DNA from: an uncultured bacterium | GTDB taxonomy: Bacteria; Krumholzibacteriota; Krumholzibacteriia; JACNKJ01 | Direction: 5' to 3' | Assembly: GCA_963695095.1 (NCBI GenBank) | Contig: CAVOFT010000001.1 | Coordinates: forward strand, 1,565,881-1,629,880 | Length of the DNA: 64,000 nucleotides | Part shown: one piece after another, positions 2,789 to 60,652 of the stretch | Position numbering within the stretch: the stretch's first letter is position 1 | How the letters are laid out: each line of letters begins with the position of its first letter | Notes under the pieces: generated by a model | What the model was told of the DNA's origin: nothing | Databases searched by the model: none | What the model saw: only the letters and a program-made list of their open reading frames with translations | Position numbers and translations under genes: made by a program

Positions 2789-3763
2789 TCAGGGCGTCGC
2801 GCCCGGAGCATCCTGCGCACGGCGGTCGGCCACCATGCGGTCGAGGACCCGGAGATTGTTCGCGGCGTTGGGATTCCCGGGCCAGATCTTCAAGGACTCC
2901 CGGAAGTGTCCGGCGGCGTCCGCGAAGCGCTCCAGCTGGATGAGCGCCCAGCCCAGATGATTGTGGACGACGGCCACGCGGCGGTCGGTCGCCTGCGCGC
3001 GGCGCAGGATCTGCAGATCGAAGCGCTCCGCAGCCGCCGGCCCCCAGCCCTTGGCCAGCAGCGCATCGATCGCGTCCAGGCTCCCGCCTTCCTCCTGCAG
3101 TTGATCCCTGCGGCGCAGGAGCATCTCCCGATAGCTCCGCGAGGGAGCCAGCTCGGCGGCGAGGGCGGTCTCCAGCGCGGCCGCGGCTTCCCCGAAGCGC
3201 CCCTCCGCGATCAGCAGCTGGCCCAGTCCCAGATGGTAGGGGCCCGGGTTGCCCGTCTCGCAGGCGGCGGCCTGGCGCATGAGCGCGATGGCGCCCGCGC
3301 GGTCGCCCCGCTTCTCGGCGAGATCGGCGAGATGCTCGTAGGCGGGAGCGCGCGTGCGGTCGCTCCGCGCCGCGTCCAGGGCTTCGTTCAGGTAGGCCTG
3401 TCCCTGCAGGTCATTGCCCAGCTGGATCCAGGCGATGCCCAGGTTGAGCAGCGCTCCCGGCTCTCTGGGCATGATTTCCAGGGCCTTCTCGTACTGGGGG
3501 ACGGCCAGGCGGAACCGCTCCTGGCGCATGGCGTCGTCGCCGTAGTGCTTGTAGTCCTGGAACTCCACCTTCGCGCCGCGGCTGGAGAGCGCCTTCAGCC
3601 AGGGAGGATTGATCACCGAGATGATCGCGAAGAGCATCAGGAGGATCCAGACGCCCATCAGGACAAGGGTCACGACGCCGCGCAGGCGAGTCGGCCCGGC
3701 AGCGGGCGGCGGCAAGGCGCCCCCTCCGCCCTCACTCGCCATTGTGATAGACCAAAAGGACAT
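2789..3763 (-). CDS. TPR-repeat protein with N-terminal membrane anchor
   Basis: ORF track; hydrophobic segment VVTLVLMGVWILLMLFAIISV then TPR-like helical repeats. Confidence 0.6.
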   Translation of the reverse strand: MSFWSITMASEGGGGALPPPAAGPTRLRGVVTLVLMGVWILLMLFAIISVINPPWLKALSSRGAKVEFQDYKHYGDDAMRQERFRLAVPQYEKALEIMPREPGALLNLGIAWIQLGNDLQGQAYLNEALDAARSDRTRAPAYEHLADLAEKRGDRAGAIALMRQAAACETGNPGPYHLGLGQLLIAEGRFGEAAAALETALAAELAPSRSYREMLLRRRDQLQEEGGSLDAIDALLAKGWGPAAAERFDLQILRRAQATDRRVAVVHNHLGWALIQLERFADAAGHFRESLKIWPGNPNAANNLRVLDRMVADRRAQDAPGATP

Positions 3764-4988
3764 GCTTGTCCTCCGCGATCATTCGGTTGTACGTGGGGAC
3801 AGCCTGCGCATTGGGAAGGCGGATGATCTGCGTGCCCTCCCCCGTGCGCGGATTGTAGTCGAACTGGCTGATCCCCATTTCGGGGAAGCCCCGGCCGCCG
3901 CTGCCCGCGCCACCCGTGGCCACCAGGATGATGTCGCGACCCTGGCTCATCAGACGCTGGCGGTCCCGCGCCGCGAAGTACTCCTTCTTGTCGACCAACC
4001 GGAAGCTCCCGTTCGGGTGGACCATCAGGTCGAAATGGACGACGGGCAGACCGCGGTAGAGGACGAGCCCCGGCCGGACCTCGCGCAGCGGCTCCCCGCG
4101 GAAGCGCAGAGCCAGGAAAGCCAAGGCCAGCAGCGCGGCCAGGCCGAGCGCGATCATCCCCCGGCGCCAGGCCTGGAACTGGCTGAGATGCACGATCAGG
4201 AAGAGCGGCACGAAGGCGCCGACGGTCCAGAGGATCACTTCACCGGCGTAGCGCACGTCGCTCTGGAGCGAGCCGAAGATCAGCATGAGCAGGGTGAACA
4301 GGACGATGAGCGGAAGCAGGGCAGCGGGCTCGCGGAGGTAATCGCCCGGACGCCGCTGGCGGATCGAGGGGCGCCGGGCCAGCAGGCTCCCGGGACCGCG
4401 CTCGCCGAGATTCAGCACGGTCATCCCGATGGCCGCGCCCCAGCCGTCCTTGGCGATGTCGCCCATGTCGAAGATGCGGCTGCTGATGAATTTCTGGAAA
4501 GCCTCGTCGAAGGTGGAGAACAGGATGGCGGCGATGAAGGTGCTCAGGATGATCCGCGCGCGGCTCATGCCGCGCGCCGCGAAGTCGCGCCGCGCCATGT
4601 AGGCGAAGAGACCGTAGGCGAGGTAGTGCCAGTTCTGCTGCAGATCGTACCACTCGTGCATCAGGTAGTAGTCGGCGATGCGATGGGCCATGAGGATCAT
4701 CAGCAGGGCGAGCGCGGCCACGCTCAGGCCGCGGCGCGACAGGCGCCGCCTCAGGACCAGAAGCGCGGCGGCGAGCAGGACCAGGGCGAGCACCGGGACC
4801 AGGGGAATCTCCCGGCCGCCCAGCGCGAGCGGGTAGCGCGTGATCTCGCCGACGGCCTCCTGCAGGAAGCGCCGCAGGAGCACGAAAGGCGTGGCGACGA
4901 GCAGCAGGCTGTACATGACCAGCTGCAGGCCGGTCGAGTGGATGCTCCAGCGGCGGCCTCGTCCCGGCGATCGCTTGGTGGATCCCAT
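3732..4988 (-). CDS. integral membrane protein, VanZ-like N-terminal region
   Basis: ORF track; several hydrophobic helices, motif FDEAFQKF...DGWGAAIG; start codon uncertain. Confidence 0.5.
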
Positions 4989-5157
4989 GGTTCCTCCATC
5001 CCTGGGACGGCCCCGGAAGCCCGATCAGACTAGCGGCCCCATGGGATTCTGGCAAGCCAAGGGAAGGGCATTCCCGCACCCACAATGCCATTCCCTTCCG
5101 CGGCCCCGATTTGGTATCGTCCCGCCGGGGCATGCCCCTTTGCCGGAGGGTAGGAGC

Positions 5158-5568
5158 ATGGACGAGCGCATCCGCGTGCTGGTGGCCAAGCCGGGCCTGG
5201 ACGGGCACGACCGCGGCGCGCGCGTGATCGCCGCCGCCCTGGTCGAGGCCGGCATGGAGGTGATCTACACGGGCCTGCACCAGACGCCCGAGATGATCGC
5301 CGAGGCGGCCATCCAGGAGGACGTGGACGTGGTGGGCCTGAGCATCCTCTCGGGCGCGCACATGAGCCTGATCCCCCGCGTGCGCGAGCGGCTGGTCGCG
5401 GCCGGGGCGGGGGACATCCTGATCACGGGCGGCGGCATCATTCCACCCGCTGACGCAGCGGCGCTCGCCGCGCAGGGCGTGGGCCAGCTCTTCGGCCCGG
5501 GGACGGACACGAGCGAGGTGGTGGACTACATTCGCGCGGAGGTCACCCGGCGGCGCGCCGGGGCCTGA
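5158..5568 (+). CDS. methylmalonyl-CoA mutase, B12-binding small subunit
   Basis: [23 protein letters not shown]...GLSILSGAH matches the cobalamin-binding domain (DxHxxG); AGGAG-like RBS before ATG 5158. Confidence 0.85.
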
Positions 5569-5635
5569 TCCGCGCGCGGGAGGCGGGGGAAACCCCGGCA
5601 ACAGAGCCTCGTAGGGGGGGCTTTCCGGAGGCGAG

Positions 5636-6487
5636 ATGAACGAGAACAGCGTGCTGGTGGTGGGCGCGGGCACCATGGGCAATGGCATCGCCCAGGTCTT
5701 CGCGGCTTCCGGCTTCGAGGTCACCCTGGTCGATGTGAGCGAGGAGCTGCTGAAGCGCGGCCTCGCCAATGTCGACAAGAGCCTGGATCGCCTGGTCAAG
5801 AAAGAGGCGATCAGCGCCGGCGACAAGAAGGCCATCCTGGGCCGCATCGCCACGGCCACCGCGGTGCCTGCCAAGTCGGAGGCCTTTCTCGCCATCGAGG
5901 CGGCCACCGAGCAGCTCGAGATCAAGCACAGGATCTTCGCCGGCCTGGCCAAGGCCCACGGCGAAGGCGCCATCCTGGCCACGAACACCTCCAGCATCTC
6001 GATCTGCACGCTGGCGGGGCCGCTGCCGCATCGCGAGCGCGTCGTCGGCATGCACTTCATGAACCCGGTGCCGATGATGAAGCTGGTGGAGATCATCCGC
6101 GGCCTGGACACCAGCGACGCGGTGATGGCGCGCACGGTGTCCCTGGCCGAGAAGCTGGGCAAGACGCCGGTGGTGGTGAACGACTACCCGGGCTTCGTCG
6201 CCAATCGCATCCTGATGCCGATGATCAACGAGGCCGTCTACACCTTGCAGGAAGGCGTGGCCGAGCGCGACGCCATCGACACGATCATGAAGCTGGGCAT
6301 GGCCCATCCCATGGGCCCGCTGCAGCTCGCCGACCTCATCGGCCTGGACGTCTGCCTCTCCATCATGGAGGTGCTGCACCGGGACCTGGGCGACAGCAAG
6401 TACCGCCCCTGCCCGCTGCTGCGCAAGATGGTCGACGCCGGGCGGCTGGGCCGCAAGAGCGGTCGCGGCTTCTACGACTACGCCTGA
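5636..6487 (+). CDS. hbd: 3-hydroxybutyryl-CoA dehydrogenase
   Basis: N-terminal [12 protein letters not shown] Rossmann motif and typical 3-hydroxyacyl-CoA dehydrogenase sequence throughout. Confidence 0.9.
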
Positions 6488-6505
6488 GCGAAGGGAGAGC
6501 GCCTC

Positions 6506-7048
6506 ATGCGCGCACGCCGCCTGATTCCGCTGCTGCTGCTTCTCACCCTGCCCGCGGCGGCCCTCGCCGAGGGCTACGCGCCCAACCCCGTCTCCCGCGA
6601 GCGCGCGCTGCTCAGGAGCGCGCTGCTGCCTGGGCTCGGCCAGATCGAGCAGGGCCGCACGGGGCGCGGCGCTCTCTGGGCGGGCGGCGCGACCGCGCTG
6701 GTCGCCGGCACCTTCTTCGCGCACATGGAATACCACAGCGCGGCCAAGGACCTGGGCAACGCCGAGGAGAGCTACCGGCGCGCCCTGGCTGAAGACGACG
6801 GCGACGCGGCCTATGCCTCATTCGTCGACATCGAGCGCCTGGCGCCCATCGCCGACGATCGCTACACGCTCAGGCGCAATATCGAAATCGGCCTCGCCGT
6901 CTGGTGGGCCGGCAGCCTGGTGGACACCTGGCTCTTCGCCGGGCCCAAGACCTCGGCGGCCGCGGGCGACGGGGCCGCCTTGCCCGGCCACCTGACGCCG
7001 GTGCTCGCCCACGGCGCGGCGGGCCTGGCCTGGACCATCGCTTTCTAG
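6506..7048 (+). CDS. hypothetical secreted protein
   Basis: ORF track; signal peptide MRARRLIPLLLLLTLPAAALA; LLPGLGQ motif. Confidence 0.5.
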   Translation: MRARRLIPLLLLLTLPAAALAEGYAPNPVSRERALLRSALLPGLGQIEQGRTGRGALWAGGATALVAGTFFAHMEYHSAAKDLGNAEESYRRALAEDDGDAAYASFVDIERLAPIADDRYTLRRNIEIGLAVWWAGSLVDTWLFAGPKTSAAAGDGAALPGHLTPVLAHGAAGLAWTIAF

Positions 7049-7063
7049 CACGGGGGAGATCTC

Positions 7064-7498
7064 ATGTCGCCACGGATGCTCTTGCTTGCGCTGGCCTTCA
7101 CGGCCTCGCTCCTCGCCCTCGGCTCCTGCAGCAAGGAGCACGAGGAACTGCTGGCCGACTTCCCGCTGCCGGTCATCACCAGCGCCCAGCGCGTGGGCAC
7201 GGAGAGCGTCCAGCTGGAATGGAGGGTGGCCGACGCGGCCGGCGTGGACGAGTACCGACTCTACGTCGGCCTCTACGCCAATCTCGGCTTCACCGAGCTG
7301 GACGTGGATTCGCTCTACACCGCGACGGCGGCGACGAGCTATCTCTACGAGGATCCCGGCCTCGCCTACATCGACGAGGATCTCTGCGCGGAGATCGGCC
7401 TCTGCGACACGCTCTACACCTACGCCTACTTCCGCGTCAGCGCCGTGCGCGCGGGTGCGGAGGGCCTGCGCGGCCCGCGCGCCTTCGTGGCTCCCTAG
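7064..7498 (+). CDS. hypothetical lipoprotein
   Basis: Signal peptide with lipobox LALGSC. Confidence 0.5.
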   Translation: MSPRMLLLALAFTASLLALGSCSKEHEELLADFPLPVITSAQRVGTESVQLEWRVADAAGVDEYRLYVGLYANLGFTELDVDSLYTATAATSYLYEDPGLAYIDEDLCAEIGLCDTLYTYAYFRVSAVRAGAEGLRGPRAFVAP

Positions 7499-36541: not shown

Positions 36542-37123
36542 TCAGCCTCCCGGGGTTTCGCCGAGGGGGGCGGGCGGACCACCCAGCGCGCGCAGCGCGC
36601 GGGCCAGTTCCAGGCGGGCGCGGCTGGCGCGGGACTTCACGGTCCCCAGGGGCACGTCGAGCAGCGCCGCGATTTCCTCGAGCGGCAGCGCCTGCATCTC
36701 CTTGAGGACGATCAGCTCGCGATTGAGGGGGCTCAGCTCGTCCATGGCGCGCAAGAGCAGACGCCGGCGCTCGTCCGCCTCCCAGTGCTCGGCGGCGCTG
36801 GGCGAGGGGTCCGCCAGCGCGTGCGCGCTCTCCACGGGCAGATCCTGGCGGGGCGGCCGCGCCTGGCGGCGGCGCAGCGCGTCCAGGCTTGCGTTGCGGG
36901 CTATGGCCAGCAGCCAGGCCTCGAAGCGCTCGCTCTCGCGACAGTGCTCCAGATTCCGCCAGACGCGCAGGAAGATCTCCTGGGCCAGGTCGCGGGCCTC
37001 CTCGCGATCGCCCACGTAGGCGCTGGCGATGCCGAAGATGCGTGACTGGTACCTGCGCACGAGAAGCTCCCAGGCCAGGGGATCGCCTTGCCGGCAGCGA
37101 GCGATGAGGGTGGCCAGATCCAT
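36542..37123 (-). CDS. ECF-type RNA polymerase sigma factor
   Basis: Sigma-70 region 2 and region 4 sequence (…RYQSRIFGIA…, …LPLEEIAALLDVPLGTVKSR…). Confidence 0.8.
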   Translation of the reverse strand: MDLATLIARCRQGDPLAWELLVRRYQSRIFGIASAYVGDREEARDLAQEIFLRVWRNLEHCRESERFEAWLLAIARNASLDALRRRQARPPRQDLPVESAHALADPSPSAAEHWEADERRRLLLRAMDELSPLNRELIVLKEMQALPLEEIAALLDVPLGTVKSRASRARLELARALRALGGPPAPLGETPGG

Positions 37124-37249
37124 CGGGTCCACTCGGTTCGGGGCTGATGGCGCGGGGGTGCTTCCCCCTGCCTGGACAAGACGCAAGCGCAGAGGGGCAG
37201 GTTCGGTCAAGCCCGCGAAAATCTTCGCCCCCAACCGCACGTTCTCCAC

Positions 37250-37283
37250 TTGAAACGCTTGGGCATTTGGCTATATTGCCAAA
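37250..37283 (+). promoter_or_regulatory. arsR promoter candidate (TTGAAA-16-TATATT) with palindromic operator TTTGGC-N6-GCCAAA over the -10
   Basis: Perfect 6-6-6 inverted repeat ~30 nt upstream of the arsR start, centred on TATATT. Confidence 0.45.
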
Positions 37284-54489: not shown

Positions 54490-55599
54490 ATGAAGAGAGC
54501 CACGTTCCTCGCGGCGGCGCTGCTGCTGCTCGCGCTGGCCGGGGCGGCCCGGGCGGAGGGTTCCTTGGTGGGTCTGCTGCAGACCTGGTGGTCTTACACC
54601 GCCTACACGGATCCGGATAGCTCCAAGTTCGATGCCAGCCAGACCGGCTTCGGCGTGCGCCGCGCTCGCATCGGCTACGACTACAAGGGCGGCGACATGT
54701 CGGGCGGCCTGCTGGGGGACGTCAGCGGCCTCAACGTCGTCATCCTGGATGCCTATGCCGACTGGAAGTTCACCGAGAAGGCGAGCCTGCGGGCGGGGCG
54801 CTTCATCGGCGTACAGAGCCAGGCGGCGGGGCTGACTTCTTCGGCCAAGATCGACCTCGTGGAGCGCAGCATCGTGGGCCGCCGCGTGGGCAGCGGCACC
54901 GTGGGCGGCGATTATCGAACCTTCGGGGCCCAGCTCACGCTGGAGCCCAGCGACATGTTCAAGGCGCAGCTGCTCGCGCACAACGGCAGCGGCAGCTGGG
55001 GCGCCGACTTCACGCCCTCCACCAACAGCCACGGCGATCCCACGGCCTTGGATGACGAGGACGAGCCAGCGCCCACGATGGCCGACACCGGCGCGCTGCC
55101 CCAGCTCGACTTCGGCATCAGCGCGACGCCGACGCCGGAACTCAGCGTGGGCTTCACCTACGGCCTGCCCAACGAGTTCCGCAGCCCGACCGGCTCGCTG
55201 ACGGCCTTCGTCTACTACGCGGCCCCCGCCTACTACTTCAAGTTCGACTACGCCACCTTGATGTGGAATCCGGTCTGGGACGACGACGCTGCCGACTACA
55301 GCAGCCTCGGCTACTCGCTGACCGCCGGCTATAGCCTGAACAAGAAGGCCGAGCTGGTGGGACGCTACGAGATCTGGGACACCAACACGGACGTCGACTA
55401 CGCGAGCGAGGATGCCGTGGGGGATCCGGAGCTGGTCAAGAACCTGGGCCTGGGCGTGAACTACTACGTCAACCCGGACGCCAAGTACGATCAGGTCTTC
55501 AAGGTCGCCTTCACGCTGCGCCTGGACGACATGCCCGACGGCGTGGACATCGCCGATCCCTACCTCTTCCAGCTCATGTGGCAGATCTACGTGCACTAG
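54490..55599 (+). CDS. putative outer-membrane porin
   Basis: Signal peptide MKRATFLAAALLLLALAGAARA; beta-strand-like alternation with Tyr/Gly-rich segments. Confidence 0.55.
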   Translation: MKRATFLAAALLLLALAGAARAEGSLVGLLQTWWSYTAYTDPDSSKFDASQTGFGVRRARIGYDYKGGDMSGGLLGDVSGLNVVILDAYADWKFTEKASLRAGRFIGVQSQAAGLTSSAKIDLVERSIVGRRVGSGTVGGDYRTFGAQLTLEPSDMFKAQLLAHNGSGSWGADFTPSTNSHGDPTALDDEDEPAPTMADTGALPQLDFGISATPTPELSVGFTYGLPNEFRSPTGSLTAFVYYAAPAYYFKFDYATLMWNPVWDDDAADYSSLGYSLTAGYSLNKKAELVGRYEIWDTNTDVDYASEDAVGDPELVKNLGLGVNYYVNPDAKYDQVFKVAFTLRLDDMPDGVDIADPYLFQLMWQIYVH

Positions 55600-55651
55600 C
55601 CGCTGCCGCGCTGGGCCCGGGGCGAAGGGGGAAGGCAGCCTTCCCCCTTCG

Positions 55652-56266
55652 TCATTGGCGGCCTGCCGCCGGCGCCGCGAAGTGCAGGGGCGCGCTGGCG
55701 TCCAGCTCGCGCCCCGCCGCGTCAACCGGCACCACGCGCCAGAAGCCCCTGGCTGGCGGCAGCGAGTCCATGCTCGCGGGCCAGAGGAGCAGGGTGTCGG
55801 CTGCCAGCGCGCTGAAGCGCAGGCGCGCCTCGGCATCGTAGAGTTCGAAGCGATAGAGCCGGGCTCGAGCGTCGGCCGTCCAGCGGAAACGCCGGGCCGG
55901 GGCGTCCAGGCTCCCGGCGGGCTCGAGTCCTTTCACCTGACCGGCTTCGCCGCGCAGGCGGGGGACCGCGGGCGAGCCGGCGCGCTCACGCCAGCCGGGA
56001 CCCAGCCAGAGCAGGGCGATGGCCGCTGCCAGCGGCAGGGCCGCGATCAGGCTCCGGCGGCGCCAGTGCAGCCCACGGCGGCGCCGCCCCTCGTCCGCGA
56101 TGGCCCCCTGGAGATTCACCTGGGCGTAGAGCGCCTCGCTGGCCTGGGCGTCCCCGAGCAGCTCCGCTTCGAGGGCCGCCCGGTCGGCGGCCGCCAGGCG
56201 GCCGGCCAGGTAGTCCGCCAGTCGCGTCTCGCGATCGCCGGCATCTCCGCCCACATCGAGCTTCAT
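55652..56266 (-). CDS. putative membrane anti-sigma factor
   Basis: In-frame ATG (MKLDVGGD) overlapping the sigma gene stop; one TM segment (LIAALPLAAAIALLWLG); position directly after the ECF sigma gene. Confidence 0.45.
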   Translation of the reverse strand: MKLDVGGDAGDRETRLADYLAGRLAAADRAALEAELLGDAQASEALYAQVNLQGAIADEGRRRRGLHWRRRSLIAALPLAAAIALLWLGPGWRERAGSPAVPRLRGEAGQVKGLEPAGSLDAPARRFRWTADARARLYRFELYDAEARLRFSALAADTLLLWPASMDSLPPARGFWRVVPVDAAGRELDASAPLHFAAPAAGRQ

Positions 56267-56805
56267 GGCAACACTCCTCGCTGGATCAGGATCTCCCGCA
56301 GGCGGGCGCGGCAGCGGTACAGCCGGCGGTAGAGCAGCTCGGCAGCCAGGCCCTCCGAGGCTGCCAGTGTCGCCGGCGAGGCGCCGGCCAGCAGGCGGCG
56401 CAGGTAGCGGCTGCAATCGGGCGCGCTCGGCGCCAGCGCGTCCAGCGCAGCCGCCAGGGCATGGGAGCGCTCCGCGCGTTCGAGCGCTTCGAGCGGACTG
56501 GGCTCCGCGCTGCCGGCGACCTGCGCAGCGCTCAGCGACTCGTGGCGACGGTGCCGCTGGCGCTGGTAGTGGTTGCCGATCGTGTTGCGGAGCACCTGAA
56601 AGCACCAGGCCAGGGGGGGCAGGCCCTCGGGCATTCGCGCTTCGCCGGCAGCTCCCGCCACGATGCCCCGCTCGTAGACCACGCGCAACGCCTCCTGTAC
56701 CGTATCCTCGACCGCTTCGGCGGCCACGCGGCGGCTGGCGATCTCCATGAAGCGCGCCCGCAGGGCCGTCAACCAGCGCTCACGCTCGGCAGACGGCCCG
56801 CTCAT
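56263..56805 (-). CDS. ECF-type RNA polymerase sigma factor
   Basis: Sigma-70 region 2/4-like sequence; start overlaps the CHAT gene stop. Confidence 0.7.
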   Translation of the reverse strand: MSGPSAERERWLTALRARFMEIASRRVAAEAVEDTVQEALRVVYERGIVAGAAGEARMPEGLPPLAWCFQVLRNTIGNHYQRQRHRRHESLSAAQVAGSAEPSPLEALERAERSHALAAALDALAPSAPDCSRYLRRLLAGASPATLAASEGLAAELLYRRLYRCRARLREILIQRGVLP

Positions 56806-59246
56806 TTGCCGAGGCCCCGCGATCTCCCCCGCCGTCGGCGCCGCGCGAGGAAAGCGCCCGGCAGGAGCAGGGCCGCCGAGGCGGCCAGGATCCAGGCCGC
56901 ACGCGGCGAGCGCTGGGCGGGGGCGGCGCCGGCGAGCGCCGCCACGGGATGCGCGCCAAGGCCGGTGAGGATGAAGGCTGCCCGATCCCGCAGGGGATAG
57001 CCCTCCCTCGCCATGGCGAGGCGAGCGAGGCCCAGCGCATGGTCGCGCTCCTCGCCGCGGCGCAGGGCCGCGTAGAAATGCACCATGAAGCGGCGCGCCG
57101 CCCGATCCTCGACATCCCAGAGGCTGGAGACCACGCTGCGGGCACCGGCGAGGAGGAAGGAGCGCGGCAGGCCGAAGCTGCCCTCGCCGGGCAGGACGAG
57201 ACCCAGGCTGCTGCGGCAGGCACTGAGGGTGACCAGATCGGCACTGAGGCGCAGGCTCTCCACCTCGGCGGCTCGGAGGAATTCGCTGCCGCCGTCGATG
57301 CCCGCGAGCAGCAGGGCGGCGTCGGCTCCGTTGAGCGGATTGATCAGCGCGTGGGTGGCGAAGTGAAGCACGGCACAGCCGGCGGCAGCGGCGCTCAGGT
57401 CCGCCTTGCGGGCGGCACGGCCTTCCAGTCGCCGACTGCCGGCCACGGCGATCTCGCGAATCTCCGCTCGCGCTTCGGGCAGGGGAACGCCCGCCAGGCC
57501 GCGACTCGGGTCCGCCCGCTCGCCGGCGAGCGCAGCGGGGGCCGGCGGGGGATCGGCCAGGGCCAGCATGCCCGCCCCGGCAGCGGGTCGCTCGGCGACC
57601 AGGACCAGGGCGCTGGCGCTGGGCAGGTAGCTCAGGTCGAAGCGCTCGCCGAGACTGCCTCCGGAGATGGGCAGGGCCTCGAAGGGGAAGCCCGCCAGGG
57701 CATCCGGCGGGATCAGGCAGAGCCGCGTCGCATCGGGCGGCAGCAGTGGCAGCAGGGGGGCGAGGAGTTGCTCGGCCAGGCGTGCCAGGGGCGGCGCGCA
57801 GCGCGAATCGGAGTTCCCATCCGCCATCAGGCTGAGGGCGGCGCGCACATCGTCGTCGAGGCTGGGCTCCAGCGCCAGGTCGAGCATCTGGAGGCCGCGG
57901 CCATCGACGAGGAATACGAGAAGGTGGTCATCGATGTAGCTATCGTATTGAATAAGACATGCATTGGATCTATCAAGTTCTGCCTGAACAGCGCGTAGCG
58001 CTGCCGGCTGCCCGCTGCCCAGGCGCTCGCGAAAGAGCGGCGCCCGCCCGCGCTCCGAGGTGGCCCAGCCGGCGGCGAGATCGCCGGTCCGAAGCTGGCA
58101 GCGCGCGAGCGCGGAGTAGTAGGCCGCGCCTTCGCGCTGAAGGCCGGCCCGGCTGTCGGGGGCCTCCTGCCTGTAGCGCTGGCTCTCGAAGGCGGTCACG
58201 GTCTCGCCGAGTACGGCCTCGGCCTCGCCGAGCCGGCCGAGAGCGAAGAGGGCCTCGCCCTCCAGCGCCCGCACCGAATTGAGCAGGGGGCCGTGCTCGA
58301 GCGCGGCGATCTCGGGCTTCAGGTCGCGCGCAGCGGCCAGGCAATCCGCGGCGCGGCCGGCGTCCAGCAGGAGACCGAGGCGGGCCTCGCGGCAGCGCGC
58401 CGCATAGTAGCGTTCGCCGGCGGCGTCCAGGGTGGCGATGCCGGTCTCGAGCCGAGGCAGCGCTTCGTCGCCGCGCCCCAGGGCGTCGAGGAGAGCGGCG
58501 CGACGCACGATGGCGAGGCCCAGGGCGTCCGTCCGTCCGGCCACTCTGGCCAGGGCGAGCGCCGAGTCCGCCCAGGCCAGCGCCTCCACCTGCCGTCCGA
58601 GCTGGGCCATCAGCAGGGTGCGGCGCATCAGCGTCGACAGCTGACCGCCCACGTTGCCCGCCAGGCGATCCCAGCGCTCGGCCTGCAGTGTTGCGTCCAG
58701 GGCCTCGCCCACGCGGCCCAGTTCCTGGTAGCTGTTGGCGATGTTGCCCCAGGTCACGCCCAGGCCGAAGCTGTCACCCAGGGCCTCGCGCAAGGGTATC
58801 ATCTCGATCCAGCTGGCCACGGCCTCTTCGCTGCGGCCGGCGGCCGCCCGCCCCACGGCGATCGCATTGAGCAGGCTGACTTCCGTCCTGGGCTCTCCGT
58901 GCCGGCGCAGCATGGCCAGGCCCCGCTGCCAGGTCGTCTCGGCCTCCTTCAGATGTCCGAAGCGGAAGGCGTGAATGCCCGCCCATTCGTAGCCGCGGCC
59001 CGCCGGCCCCAGGAGGCCGGCGGCTTCCAGGCTGTCCGCCAGGGCGAGCAGGGCGCCGCAATGGGCGAGCCGCTCGCTCTCGCTGCTGGGTTTGCTCGGA
59101 TAGAGGGCGGCGGCCCGCGCCATCAGCCACGTGGAGTCGGCGGCCGCCGGCGCCGCCTGAGGCCGCTCGGGAACAGCCGTGCTCAGCACTGCGCCCAGGA
59201 GCAGGGGAAGCAGGGCCAAGCGTGGCTGTGGTCCTTGGCGTCGCAT
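56802..59246 (-). CDS. secreted TPR-like/CHAT-domain (caspase-like) protein with C-terminal membrane anchor
   Basis: In-frame ATG 59246 gives signal peptide MRRQGPQPRLALLPLLLGAVLS; TPR-like repeats; CHAT motifs …VLHFATHAL… and …LVTLSACRSS…; C-terminal hydrophobic stretch plus RRRRRGRSR. Confidence 0.75.
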   Translation of the reverse strand: MRRQGPQPRLALLPLLLGAVLSTAVPERPQAAPAAADSTWLMARAAALYPSKPSSESERLAHCGALLALADSLEAAGLLGPAGRGYEWAGIHAFRFGHLKEAETTWQRGLAMLRRHGEPRTEVSLLNAIAVGRAAAGRSEEAVASWIEMIPLREALGDSFGLGVTWGNIANSYQELGRVGEALDATLQAERWDRLAGNVGGQLSTLMRRTLLMAQLGRQVEALAWADSALALARVAGRTDALGLAIVRRAALLDALGRGDEALPRLETGIATLDAAGERYYAARCREARLGLLLDAGRAADCLAAARDLKPEIAALEHGPLLNSVRALEGEALFALGRLGEAEAVLGETVTAFESQRYRQEAPDSRAGLQREGAAYYSALARCQLRTGDLAAGWATSERGRAPLFRERLGSGQPAALRAVQAELDRSNACLIQYDSYIDDHLLVFLVDGRGLQMLDLALEPSLDDDVRAALSLMADGNSDSRCAPPLARLAEQLLAPLLPLLPPDATRLCLIPPDALAGFPFEALPISGGSLGERFDLSYLPSASALVLVAERPAAGAGMLALADPPPAPAALAGERADPSRGLAGVPLPEARAEIREIAVAGSRRLEGRAARKADLSAAAAGCAVLHFATHALINPLNGADAALLLAGIDGGSEFLRAAEVESLRLSADLVTLSACRSSLGLVLPGEGSFGLPRSFLLAGARSVVSSLWDVEDRAARRFMVHFYAALRRGEERDHALGLARLAMAREGYPLRDRAAFILTGLGAHPVAALAGAAPAQRSPRAAWILAASAALLLPGAFLARRRRRGRSRGLGK

Positions 59247-59383
59247 GTGGGCCGATTCCAGTATATTGCCTATCGACAATGGTTTGTAGCCATCGATCCT
59301 AGTCGATCTGTCGCCATGGCGCCAGCTATTTTGGATCGCGGTCGGTCCCTCGCCGCCAGCGCTACCTTTTTCTCGCCTCGCGC

Positions 59384-59412
59384 TTGACATGTATACGGAC
59401 GTATAGTAGTTT
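59384..59412 (+). promoter_or_regulatory. dinB promoter candidate (TTGACA-17-TAGTTT) with palindrome TATACG-N2-CGTATA in the spacer (candidate SOS operator)
   Basis: Read directly ~60 nt upstream of the dinB start. Confidence 0.3.
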
Positions 59413-59464
59413 CTCCGTCGATGCAGGGCGCTGCGGCCTGGCCTGCGTCGGAGGTTGCTCGCCC

Positions 59465-60652
59465 GTGTTCAGGTCCTCCCCCGCCCTGGCTCACGTCGAC
59501 ATGGACGCTTTCTACGCCTCCGTGGAACAGCGGGATTTTCCCGAGTTGCGGGGGCGGCCCGTCGTGGTGGGCGGCAGCGATCCCACGCGGCGGGGCGTGG
59601 TCTCGGCAGCCAGCTACGAGGCGCGGCGCTTCGGCATCCACAGCGCGATGCCCCTGCGCACGGCCTTCCGGCTCTGCCCCCAGGCCTGCTTCGTGGCCGG
59701 TCGCATGGAGGTCTACGTGGCCGAGAGCAAGCGCATCATGGCCATCCTGCGCGAGCATTCCCCGCGCGTGCAGCCGCTCAGCCTGGACGAGGCCTTCCTG
59801 GACCTCAGCGGCACCGAGCTGCTCTTCGGACCGCCGGAGGGCACCCTGCGCCGGATCAAGGCGCGGATCCGGGAGGAGACGGGCCTGGTCTGCTCGGCCG
59901 GCCTGGCGCCGGTGAAGTTCGTGGCGAAGATCGCCTCGGATCTGGAGAAGCCCGACGGCTTCACCGTGGTGCCGCCGGACGGCGTGCTGGACTTCCTGCG
60001 CCCCCTGCCCGTGGGCCGGCTCTGGGGCGTGGGGCCCAGGACCCTGGCCCGGCTCCAGGAGCTGGGCATCGCCAGCATCGGCGATCTGGACCGCCTGGGC
60101 GAGGCCGAACTGGAGCGCCTCTTCGGCCGCTGGGGCACGCGGCTGGCCCGCCTGGCGCGGGGCGAGGATCCCCGCGGGGTGGAGGCCGAGCGGCCTGACG
60201 AGAAGTCCGTCGGCCACGAGCACACCTTCGCCGAGGATCAGGACGAGGCGCGGGTGCTGGAGCGCACCCTGCTGGAGCTGGCCGAGAAGGTGGCCCGTCG
60301 CCTGCGCCGGCAGGGCGTGGCCGGCCGCACGCTGACGCTCAAGCTGCGCACGGCCTCCTTCCGCACGCTGAGCCGATCCGTCACCGGCAGCGAGTACCTG
60401 GACCAGGGCCTGCTCATCTTCCAGACCGCCCGGCGCCTGATGAACGCGGTGGACCGCCGGGGAGAGAAGGTGCGGCTGCTGGGCATCTCGCTGCGCAATC
60501 TGATCCCCCGGGACGCCGTGCCCGGCAGCCTCTTCGCCGGCGAAGCGCCGGAGCGCGAGGCGAAGCTGGACGGCGCCATCGACGAACTGGGGGAGCGTTT
60601 TGGGCGCGGGGCCGTTCAGCGGGCCCGCCTGCTGGGAAGGAGTCGCTCATGA
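59465..60652 (+). CDS. dinB: DNA polymerase IV (Y-family)
   Basis: Catalytic motifs HVDMDAFYASVEQ and SLDEAFLD; start GTG 59465 or ATG 59501. Confidence 0.85.
   Translation: MFRSSPALAHVDMDAFYASVEQRDFPELRGRPVVVGGSDPTRRGVVSAASYEARRFGIHSAMPLRTAFRLCPQACFVAGRMEVYVAESKRIMAILREHSPRVQPLSLDEAFLDLSGTELLFGPPEGTLRRIKARIREETGLVCSAGLAPVKFVAKIASDLEKPDGFTVVPPDGVLDFLRPLPVGRLWGVGPRTLARLQELGIASIGDLDRLGEAELERLFGRWGTRLARLARGEDPRGVEAERPDEKSVGHEHTFAEDQDEARVLERTLLELAEKVARRLRRQGVAGRTLTLKLRTASFRTLSRSVTGSEYLDQGLLIFQTARRLMNAVDRRGEKVRLLGISLRNLIPRDAVPGSLFAGEAPEREAKLDGAIDELGERFGRGAVQRARLLGRSRS

Follow-up and report, generated by a model that had tools for sequence, protein, structure and literature searches.

A predicted periplasmic TPR-CHAT protein encoded with an ECF sigma factor and an anti-sigma-like protein: a possible two-protein counterpart of DdvA

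How is an anti-sigma factor of the extracytoplasmic function (ECF) type made to let go of its sigma factor, and could a caspase-like protease encoded in the same operon be the agent? To our knowledge, the way in which most ECF anti-sigma factors are inactivated is unknown, and DdvA is the only anti-sigma factor with a caspase-like domain described so far. The question is raised by three minus-strand genes at positions 55652–59246 of the stretch analyzed here (the window: 64,000 nt with a G+C content of ~72%, from contig CAVOFT010000001.1 of an uncultured Krumholzibacteriota bacterium), which encode a TPR-CHAT protein, a divergent sigma factor, and an anti-sigma-like protein. The genes are translationally coupled through ATGA overlaps, the stop codon of the CHAT gene overlapping the ATG of the sigma gene (56805–56802) and the stop codon of the latter overlapping the ATG of the anti-sigma-like gene (56266–56263). 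The original prediction had described a secreted TPR-like and CHAT protein with a C-terminal anchor together with both overlaps, all of which are present, and had proposed that the CHAT protein may be the dedicated site-1 protease or sensor of the sigma module. We give even chances to the view that the three genes form one extracytoplasmic signaling module, a split, two-protein counterpart of DdvA, in which the CHAT protein would act as a periplasmic sensor-protease on the linker of the anti-sigma-like protein.

The CHAT assignment follows from a Pfam match (PF12770) over residues 486–749 with 177.3 bits against a cut-off of 24 (E = 6e−52); the Pfam match to TPR_12 was weak, and the family profile matched LGN/Pins-type TPR proteins with E = 1e−27. 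The caspase-like dyad named in the original prediction held up on alignment, as His632 (in HFATHA) and Cys677 (in LSAC) are invariant both among 16 orthologues and in a wider set of 13 homologues, and the region past Cys677, including G-E-G and W-D-V-x-D, aligns with the active-site region of separase. Such invariance of both catalytic residues favors a role in catalysis over one as a mere scaffold. An AlphaFold2 (AF2) model built from 13 sequences (predicted local distance difference test score, pLDDT, 86.2; predicted template modeling score, pTM, 0.80) matched DdvA, Csx29, separase, and gingipains in fold searches, with DdvA as the best Foldseek match (E = 8e−17, 794 columns). By sequence, DdvA was not reached: phmmer and the family profile run against PDB gave only separase and TPR proteins. 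Judged from the model, the protein is a predicted peptidase with a caspase-haemoglobinase fold behind a TPR superhelix. It is also predicted to be exported, since its N-terminus reaches a hydropathy (Kyte-Doolittle) of 2.70 at residue 10, in LALLPLLLGAVL, with three K/R and no D/E ahead of it; this signal-peptide-like pattern was found in 16 of the 16 orthologues, and the model has a pLDDT < 50 over residues 1–35. At the other end, a hydrophobic helix would serve as a membrane anchor, and the 13-residue tail that follows it, with eight Arg/Lys, would remain in the cytoplasm.

The product of the second gene is best read as a divergent ECF (group IV) sigma factor made up of sigma2 and sigma4 only. 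No Pfam model matched it at E < 0.1 (Sigma70_r2 reached merely E = 0.29), and TIGR02937 (sigma70-ECF) gave E = 1e−10 with 41.3 bits, 1.6 under its curated cut-off of 42.9. When a profile of 31 family members was compared with PDB, all eight matches were ECF sigma factors, with sigma2 and sigma4 covered; one of them was SigL (E = 7e−8), and profile positions 31–178 aligned to SigL, SigH, and RpoE. Precomputed assignments to PF04542 or PF08281 exist for 11 of 101 homologues, and the family is confined to metagenome-assembled genomes (MAGs) labelled Eisenbacteria, Krumholzibacteriota, Latescibacteria, and Gemmatimonadota. Three cysteines are kept without exception across the 31 aligned members, namely C68 (WCFQVLRN, region 2), C131 (start of sigma4), and C165 (YRCR, recognition helix of sigma4), a pattern that suggests a metal or redox site inside the sigma factor itself. 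Elsewhere in the window, an open reading frame (ORF) at 36542–37270 (−) matched the hidden Markov model of this sigma family weakly (E = 0.0016) and may be another ECF-type sigma gene.

The third frame, put forward earlier as a small anti-sigma-like gene with a single transmembrane (TM) helix, is a real gene of a conserved family. Its homologue starts 4 nt inside the sigma stop codon in 20 of 26 related genomes, and an exhaustive profile search retrieved 2733 cluster representatives at E ≤ 1e−3 (339 at 1e−10), most of them 185–250 aa long and with the same architecture. Common to the family are a C-terminal domain, a TM helix, and the N-terminal motif RL..Y..G.L...ER..FE..L.D..LA..LY. No curated Pfam or NCBIfam model matches this family. 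The N-terminal part is helical in an AF2 model built from seven sequences (mean pLDDT 65). The zinc-finger model zf-HC2 (PF13490) gave E = 0.23 for the window protein and sub-threshold matches in 12 of 27 members (best E = 0.004); the HxxxCxxC zinc motif is absent from the window protein and its orthologues, which have LGDAQASEALY at the aligned site, and an outgroup (L028) alone keeps it at the aligned place. The protein therefore does not belong to the zinc-binding anti-sigma (ZAS) subclass and may instead carry a zinc-free anti-sigma domain. Because RRRRGLHWRRR precedes the TM helix, an N-in/C-out orientation is predicted by the positive-inside rule, and by such rules the CHAT domain and the C-terminal domain of the anti-sigma-like protein are predicted to share the periplasmic compartment. 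The latter domain is modeled as a beta-sandwich whose top Foldseek matches are FN3 domains (E ~1e−2, probability ~1.0), and the profile reached 3mpc (Fn3-like) in PDB with E = 0.09. Taken together, the third gene appears to encode a zinc-free, class-I-like anti-sigma factor with an FN3-like periplasmic domain, which would bind the sigma factor. The same FN3-like domain was also seen in 7–22 tandem copies in giant proteins of 864–4984 aa (P0122, P0144, P0155, P0186, and others), and because of this tandem repetition it reads as a mobile beta-sandwich module, with a signature (F.W....A..YR ... W.V) that is not covered by Pfam.

Between the TM helix and the FN3-like domain lies a linker that is variable and rich in Pro, Gly, and acidic residues apart from one short motif. 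Hydrophobic-Arg-[Gly/Ser] was found in 21 of 21 orthologues and also in most of the distant relatives, with the consensus P/E/D - V/R/T - L/F/M - R - G/S (near-invariant P-V-[LF]-R-[GS]). Of 129 full-length family representatives, 124 have the Arg and 120 have Gly/Ser behind it, so that the conservation of this linker residue is on a level with that of the Trp residues in the core of the fold (128–129 of 129). Expressed as protease subsites, P2 holds one of L, F, M, V, and Y in 121 of the 124 sequences; V, R, or T stands at P3 and P, E, or D at P4, and P1′ is Gly in 94 of the 124. The P-R-L-R-G of the window protein is a candidate cleavage or recognition site, with R105 as the putative P1 residue by analogy with related proteases. 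Gingipain R cuts after Arg. Separase has the same preference (PMC11506125). Self-cleavage of the anti-sigma-like protein by an N-O acyl shift (FecR-type) was considered as well and rejected, as it needs Ser, Thr, or Cys at P1′, the position where Gly predominates.

The association of these genes was followed from both sides. Starting from the sigma factor (26 genome loci), an orthologous CHAT gene adjoins the sigma/anti-sigma pair in 16 loci and a different TPR-CHAT paralogue, larger or more distant, in three more (L004, L020, L024), i.e., in 19 of 26; within the 16, the CHAT gene lies mostly upstream and co-directional, is divergent in L015, L016, and L022, and is found downstream in L013 and L025. 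Convergent orders also occur in this set, which brings the arrangements to four. Four loci have full flanks and no adjacent CHAT gene (see below), and the remaining 3 of 26 are short contigs or an outgroup. Starting from CHAT (a metagenome scan with the CHAT alignment, 80 loci), the anti-sigma-like gene lies beside it in 42 of 80 loci, or in 20 of the 29 that have at least 1.5 kb on both sides, so that the co-occurrence of CHAT and ECF sigma genes across genomes, on which the original prediction hinged, is borne out in both directions. The 42 arrangements comprise sigma > anti-sigma > CHAT (16), convergent (21), divergent (4), and CHAT-first (1) orders, and the candidate ORF upstream of the anti-sigma-like gene carried Pfam Sigma70_r2 and r4_2 in 10 of the 10 loci tested. 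The marine contig L088 (32% G+C) holds a trio at 3378–7486, made up of a sigma gene (6914–7486, −), an anti-sigma gene (6180–6917, −), and a convergent gene for a 940-aa TPR-CHAT protein with a C-terminal TM helix; the anti-sigma ectodomain is TPR-like there, not FN3-like, and analogous low-GC (32–33%) marine contigs are L081, L090, L092, L093, L106, and L107. Judged from these contigs, the CHAT/ECF pairing extends to very different lineages and to another type of anti-sigma ectodomain. Two distant CHAT proteins (P0114, P0115) had no sigma neighbor, so the link with the sigma factor is specific to a subfamily. Adjacency that is kept through rearrangement is a classical signature of a functional link, and the gene orders point to a strong one here; chance adjacency was rejected, given that it recurs across lineages in four gene orders.

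In order to compare co-variation between the proteins, pairwise distances in 14 matched triples were used for a mirror-tree test (partial r and Mantel p). CHAT distances correlated with those of the periplasmic part of the anti-sigma-like protein when the sigma factor was accounted for (r = 0.48, p = 0.0005); the corresponding values were r = 0.14 (p = 0.12) for CHAT and the cytoplasmic part, and r = −0.08 (p = 0.71) for the sigma factor and the periplasmic part given CHAT. The outcome fits a specific relationship between CHAT and the periplasmic domain, as far as a weak, small-sample test can tell.

The following sequence of events would account for these features. At rest, the cytoplasmic helical domain of the anti-sigma-like protein would hold the ECF sigma factor, and its periplasmic FN3-like domain would block intramembrane proteolysis. 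The exported TPR-CHAT protein, tethered by its C-terminal TM helix in this organism, would sense a periplasmic cue through the TPR superhelix, upon which the His632/Cys677 site would become active and cut the anti-sigma-like protein next to the membrane, in its disordered linker; the most likely place of the cut would be just behind R105, the near-invariant Arg of P-V-[LF]-R-[GS]. With the FN3-like domain removed, the truncated protein would turn into a substrate of a site-2 protease (RseP type) and the sigma factor would be released. Sigma binding, the cut and its position, and the involvement of RseP are steps that we infer; of the earlier proposal of a dedicated site-1 protease or sensor, it is thus the functional link with the sigma module that stands on strong ground, and the cleavage and the direction of control that stay conditional. 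The fullest version, in which a new anti-sigma family would have the stand-alone CHAT protein as its dedicated site-1 protease, cutting after the invariant Arg, and in which this would amount to a widespread and hitherto unrecognized class of ECF signaling (the anti-sigma family comprises at least several hundred clusters at 50% identity), is a tentative one, which we hold to be less likely than not.

Several observations weigh against a CHAT protein that cuts the linker. The signal peptide and the topology of both proteins are rule-based predictions, and the call of a disordered linker is soft, coming as it does from the seven-sequence model with its moderate confidence. The C-terminal TM anchor is present in only ~9 of the 16 CHAT orthologues, and two fold-search methods disagree on DdvA as the nearest structure. 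In four loci with full flanks (L003, L007, L008, and L018, the last with a TPR-only neighbor), the sigma/anti-sigma pair is there along with the R-[GS] motif, and an adjacent CHAT gene is not; either CHAT is encoded elsewhere in these genomes, or another protease uses the site. The mirror-tree result could also come from shared, compartment-specific rates, and the test has low power, because the sigma factor and the cytoplasmic domain, the expected interactors, were not significant (r = 0.18, p = 0.12, given CHAT). Finally, CHAT-mediated cleavage was not observed for DdvA itself, where mutants of the dyad behaved like the wild type (PMC11506125).

The same data can be read in other ways. CHAT could be an output of the system, co-transcribed with or controlled by the sigma factor and acting in the periplasm on other substrates, such as damaged envelope or foreign proteins, with the anti-sigma-like protein left to a different site-1 protease. 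ECF operons often include targets, and context cannot separate a regulator from a target (PMC7826278); the four genomes that keep the pair and the motif apart from CHAT, as well as the distant CHAT proteins P0114 and P0115, would be at ease with such a role. Against it, the association survives four gene orders, including convergent and divergent ones in which co-transcription is impossible, the co-variation of CHAT is specific to the periplasmic half of the anti-sigma-like protein, a search ahead of the CHAT genes turned up no ECF-type promoter common to them, and the structural relatives of CHAT, DdvA and Csx29, regulate sigma activity; we regard an output role as unlikely. The promoter search covered 23 upstream regions with dyads (4-mer, 14–20 nt, 4-mer) and k-mers, and nothing rose above shuffled sequences: the best dyad occurred in 8 sequences vs. 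7–9 in shuffles, and CGGGAGA in 7 of 23 vs. up to 7, and what precedes the CHAT genes instead are TAnnnT −10-like elements.

CHAT and the anti-sigma-like protein might also interact without any cut, either with CHAT as an RseB-like sensor or co-anti-sigma factor that shields the FN3-like domain or the linker, or with the linker as a securin-like pseudosubstrate that holds the protease inactive, in which case control would run from the sigma module to the protease. Co-variation and co-localization are as readily explained by binding as by cleavage, docking or a pseudosubstrate role would be in keeping with a conserved linear motif that is short and placed in a disordered linker, and there are parallels in securin, which sits in the active site and holds separase inactive, and in the dyad of DdvA, found in a resting geometry (PMC11506125). 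However, the invariance of both catalytic residues in the 16 and 13 sequences points to selection for catalysis, which contradicts a non-catalytic sensor and is compatible with the pseudosubstrate version, and no other substrates are in evidence; we regard binding alone as improbable. Much further down we place an anti-phage defense island in which the sigma factor switches on immune genes. Both characterized TPR-CHAT/sigma systems do regulate defense loci (PMC11506125, PMC10028731), and the NCBIfam models of Csx29 and of the type III-E sigma factor respond weakly (10.7 and 12 bits), but these scores are far below the cut-offs (300 and 100, respectively), none of the three proteins has a PADLOC match, the neighboring genes are of a different kind (dinB/lexA and genes for a porin and for multihaem cytochromes, with synteny in a relative), and in other lineages the module lies among housekeeping-type genes, so a defense role seems very unlikely, although defense genes farther away might be among the targets. 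The view of CHAT as a sensor-protease acting on the linker is the one that we carry forward; its parts are located in Table 1.

Table 1. Positions within the window of the three genes, of their predicted domains and motifs, and of nearby sequence elements
Feature	Position	Strand	Residues and properties
TPR-CHAT gene	56802..59246	−	814 aa; signal-peptide-like N-terminus, ~9 TPR pairs, CHAT caspase-like domain, C-terminal TM anchor
Predicted Sec-type signal peptide	59142..59246	−	Residues 1–35; n-region R2, R3, R9; h-region LALLPLLLGAVL
Predicted TPR superhelix	58089..59081	−	Residues 56–386, 17 helices (~9 pairs); from the secondary structure of the model
AT-rich rare-codon island, CLIQYDSYIDD	57927..57959	−	TPR/CHAT boundary; GC 0.36, GC3 0.455
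Predicted CHAT protease domain	56961..57962	−	Residues 429–762; His632 codon 57351–57353, Cys677 codon 57216–57218
Predicted C-terminal TM anchor	56844..56900	−	Residues 783–801; hydropathy 1.95–1.96; model helix 781–805
Putative ECF (group IV) sigma gene	56263..56805	−	180 aa; divergent, lineage-restricted family
Anti-sigma-like gene	55652..56266	−	204 aa
Predicted cytoplasmic helical anti-sigma domain	56081..56248	−	Residues 7–62; AF2 helices 7–20, 26–38, 40–62; pLDDT 70–79
Predicted single TM helix	55991..56056	−	Residues 71–92; hydropathy 1.98; RRRRGLHWRRR ahead
Candidate linker motif P102-R-L-R105-G106	55949..55963	−	In low-confidence segment 91–111 (pLDDT < 50)
Predicted FN3-like periplasmic beta-sandwich	55667..55930	−	Residues 113–200; pLDDT 77–90
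Perfect 13-bp GC-rich hairpin	55624..55650	−	Directly past the last stop codon of the operon, between convergent genes; dG −30.4 kcal/mol, z −3.4

The hairpin that closes the operon is a probable terminator without a U-tract, and it was not listed by the consensus terminator scan, which requires a T-run. The consensus scan for sigma-70 promoters and terminators returned 0 sites over 55400–59700, and Rfam gave no match over 55300–59800. Long ORFs on the opposite strand were rejected as genes, as it is the minus-strand frames that hold the coding signature (G+C content at third codon positions, GC3, of 0.85 vs. 0.56 at second positions, GC2) and the homologues. The CHAT proteins encoded before the sigma gene (L005, L019, L026, L027, and the window) often end in G-x-(L/F)-(G/A/S)-K, an ending that coincides with the overlap region holding the sigma start; it is probably a constraint at the nucleotide level (ribosome loading for the sigma gene) and not a protein motif. 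Upstream of the CHAT gene, the 5′ leader (59246–59300, −) has a −10-like CTAG[G/C]AT in common with the syntenic relative L001, and in both an inverted repeat, ACAA-N4-TTGT, stands before the start codon (ACAAACCATTGT vs. ACAACCCGTTGT), which could be an operator or a small hairpin. Loci in which the sigma gene comes first (L003, L004, L007, L008, L013, L015, L016, L022) share a leader with CGGGAGAT or CGAGAGAT, followed 10–20 nt later by CAAAYA just before the ATG; its k-mer counts are not above those of shuffled controls.

The AT-rich island inside the CHAT gene, which had been flagged as compositionally odd, is indeed so, with a GC3 of 0.455 vs. 0.853 gene-wide, many rare, A/T-ending codons, and the lowest G+C content of any 45-nt stretch of the gene, yet it is not conserved: the aligned site has a GC3 of 0.78–1.00 in 15 orthologues, and the closest of them has a local GC minimum as well, for which its amino-acid composition alone accounts. 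The scans given above placed neither a promoter-like or terminator-like element nor an Rfam match on the island. The island is real and lineage-specific, and we do not count it among the elements of the proposed mechanism.

Between the CHAT gene and dinB (IMS family), a promoter-like element at 59384–59412 (+), TTGACA-17 nt-TAGTTT, reads into dinB. Its spacer contains a perfect palindrome, TATACGGACGTATA (59392–59405), which is unique in the window (0.02 expected) and is kept as TATAC-N4-GTATA in L001. A LexA gene lies ~1.8 kb downstream of the element in the same direction, and the palindrome is probably the LexA operator of this lineage.

The arrangement had been thought uncharacterized. This holds for the split periplasmic form, as nothing in the literature searched describes a periplasmic CHAT protein that is a polypeptide of its own and has a separate anti-sigma factor as its partner, and it does not hold for the wider theme, which has precedents in DdvA, in Csx29, and in the context of ECF54. 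The scheme shares with the DegS/RseA/RseP/sigma-E system of Escherichia coli a single-pass anti-sigma factor that would first have to lose its periplasmic domain to a site-1 protease, activated by a signal, for site-2 cleavage to follow. DegS, however, is a serine protease of the PDZ type whose gene lies apart from that of its sigma factor, and it senses through the PDZ domain, whereas the candidate here is a clan CD cysteine protease of the same operon with TPR as the sensor domain. The separase-securin pair is eukaryotic and nuclear or cytoplasmic, with a much larger separase and unrelated substrates. For ECF54, a group described as having no anti-sigma factor, CHAT proteins were noted among the genes in its context (PMC8999054, which cites the ECF classification); the group was placed in Actinobacteria (PMC7826278). 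There, too, the ECF/CHAT link is bioinformatic and proteolytic control was proposed, but the ECF54 context also includes a subtilase and a carboxypeptidase, and, going by its description, it differs from the module analyzed here, which has a conserved anti-sigma-like protein and belongs to an Eisenbacteria/Krumholzibacteriota/Latescibacteria-like lineage. Closer in parts is the type III-E CRISPR system, where the TPR-CHAT protein Csx29 cleaves Csx30, an inhibitor of an ECF-like sigma factor, in the cytoplasm and under RNA control (PMC10028731). This complex (Craspase) is bound to Cas7-11 and activated by target RNA, whereas the window protein is predicted to be exported; Csx30 is unrelated to the anti-sigma-like protein, the flanks hold no Cas genes, and the similarity to Csx29 and to the III-E sigma factor is as faint as the scores above indicate.

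The nearest counterpart is DdvA of Myxococcus xanthus, a transmembrane anti-sigma factor with a fused periplasmic TPR-CHAT part that was proposed to be its own site-1 protease (PMC11506125); its ECF sigma factor is DdvS (PDB 8ROT/8RW5; PMC11506125, PMC6061681). DdvA that lacks TPR-CHAT is degraded in an RseP-dependent manner (PMC11506125). Both systems couple a periplasmic TPR part (~9 repeats) and a CHAT domain with a His/Cys dyad to an ECF sigma/anti-sigma pair, both have a single-pass anti-sigma protein with a small N-terminal helical domain for sigma binding and a flexible juxtamembrane linker, and in both a CHAT cut in the linker followed by RseP is a proposal. Unlike DdvA, in which everything is one polypeptide, the protease and the anti-sigma-like protein are separate genes here; the former has a signal peptide of its own and is also equipped with a C-terminal anchor in this genome, and the latter has its own FN3-like periplasmic domain. 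The CHCC zinc site of DdvA has no counterpart, as zinc ligands are missing from the anti-sigma domain, and no defense island is adjacent. The distribution differs as well, being broad here (several candidate phyla, soil and marine metagenomes), whereas DdvA-like proteins have been reported only in some Myxococcota and one Comamonas species. The locus shows the parts of DdvA as two proteins, the candidate substrate of which carries a sharply defined motif, and it defines an unannotated anti-sigma family along with a divergent ECF group with three invariant cysteines. If the proposed scheme is correct, the separate soluble domains of enzyme and substrate would allow the first direct demonstration of regulated intramembrane proteolysis driven by CHAT, and prokaryotic caspase-like proteases would extend to envelope signaling outside immunity. 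By this comparison, the module most likely works like the model proposed for DdvA, with the protease and its putative substrate divided between two proteins.

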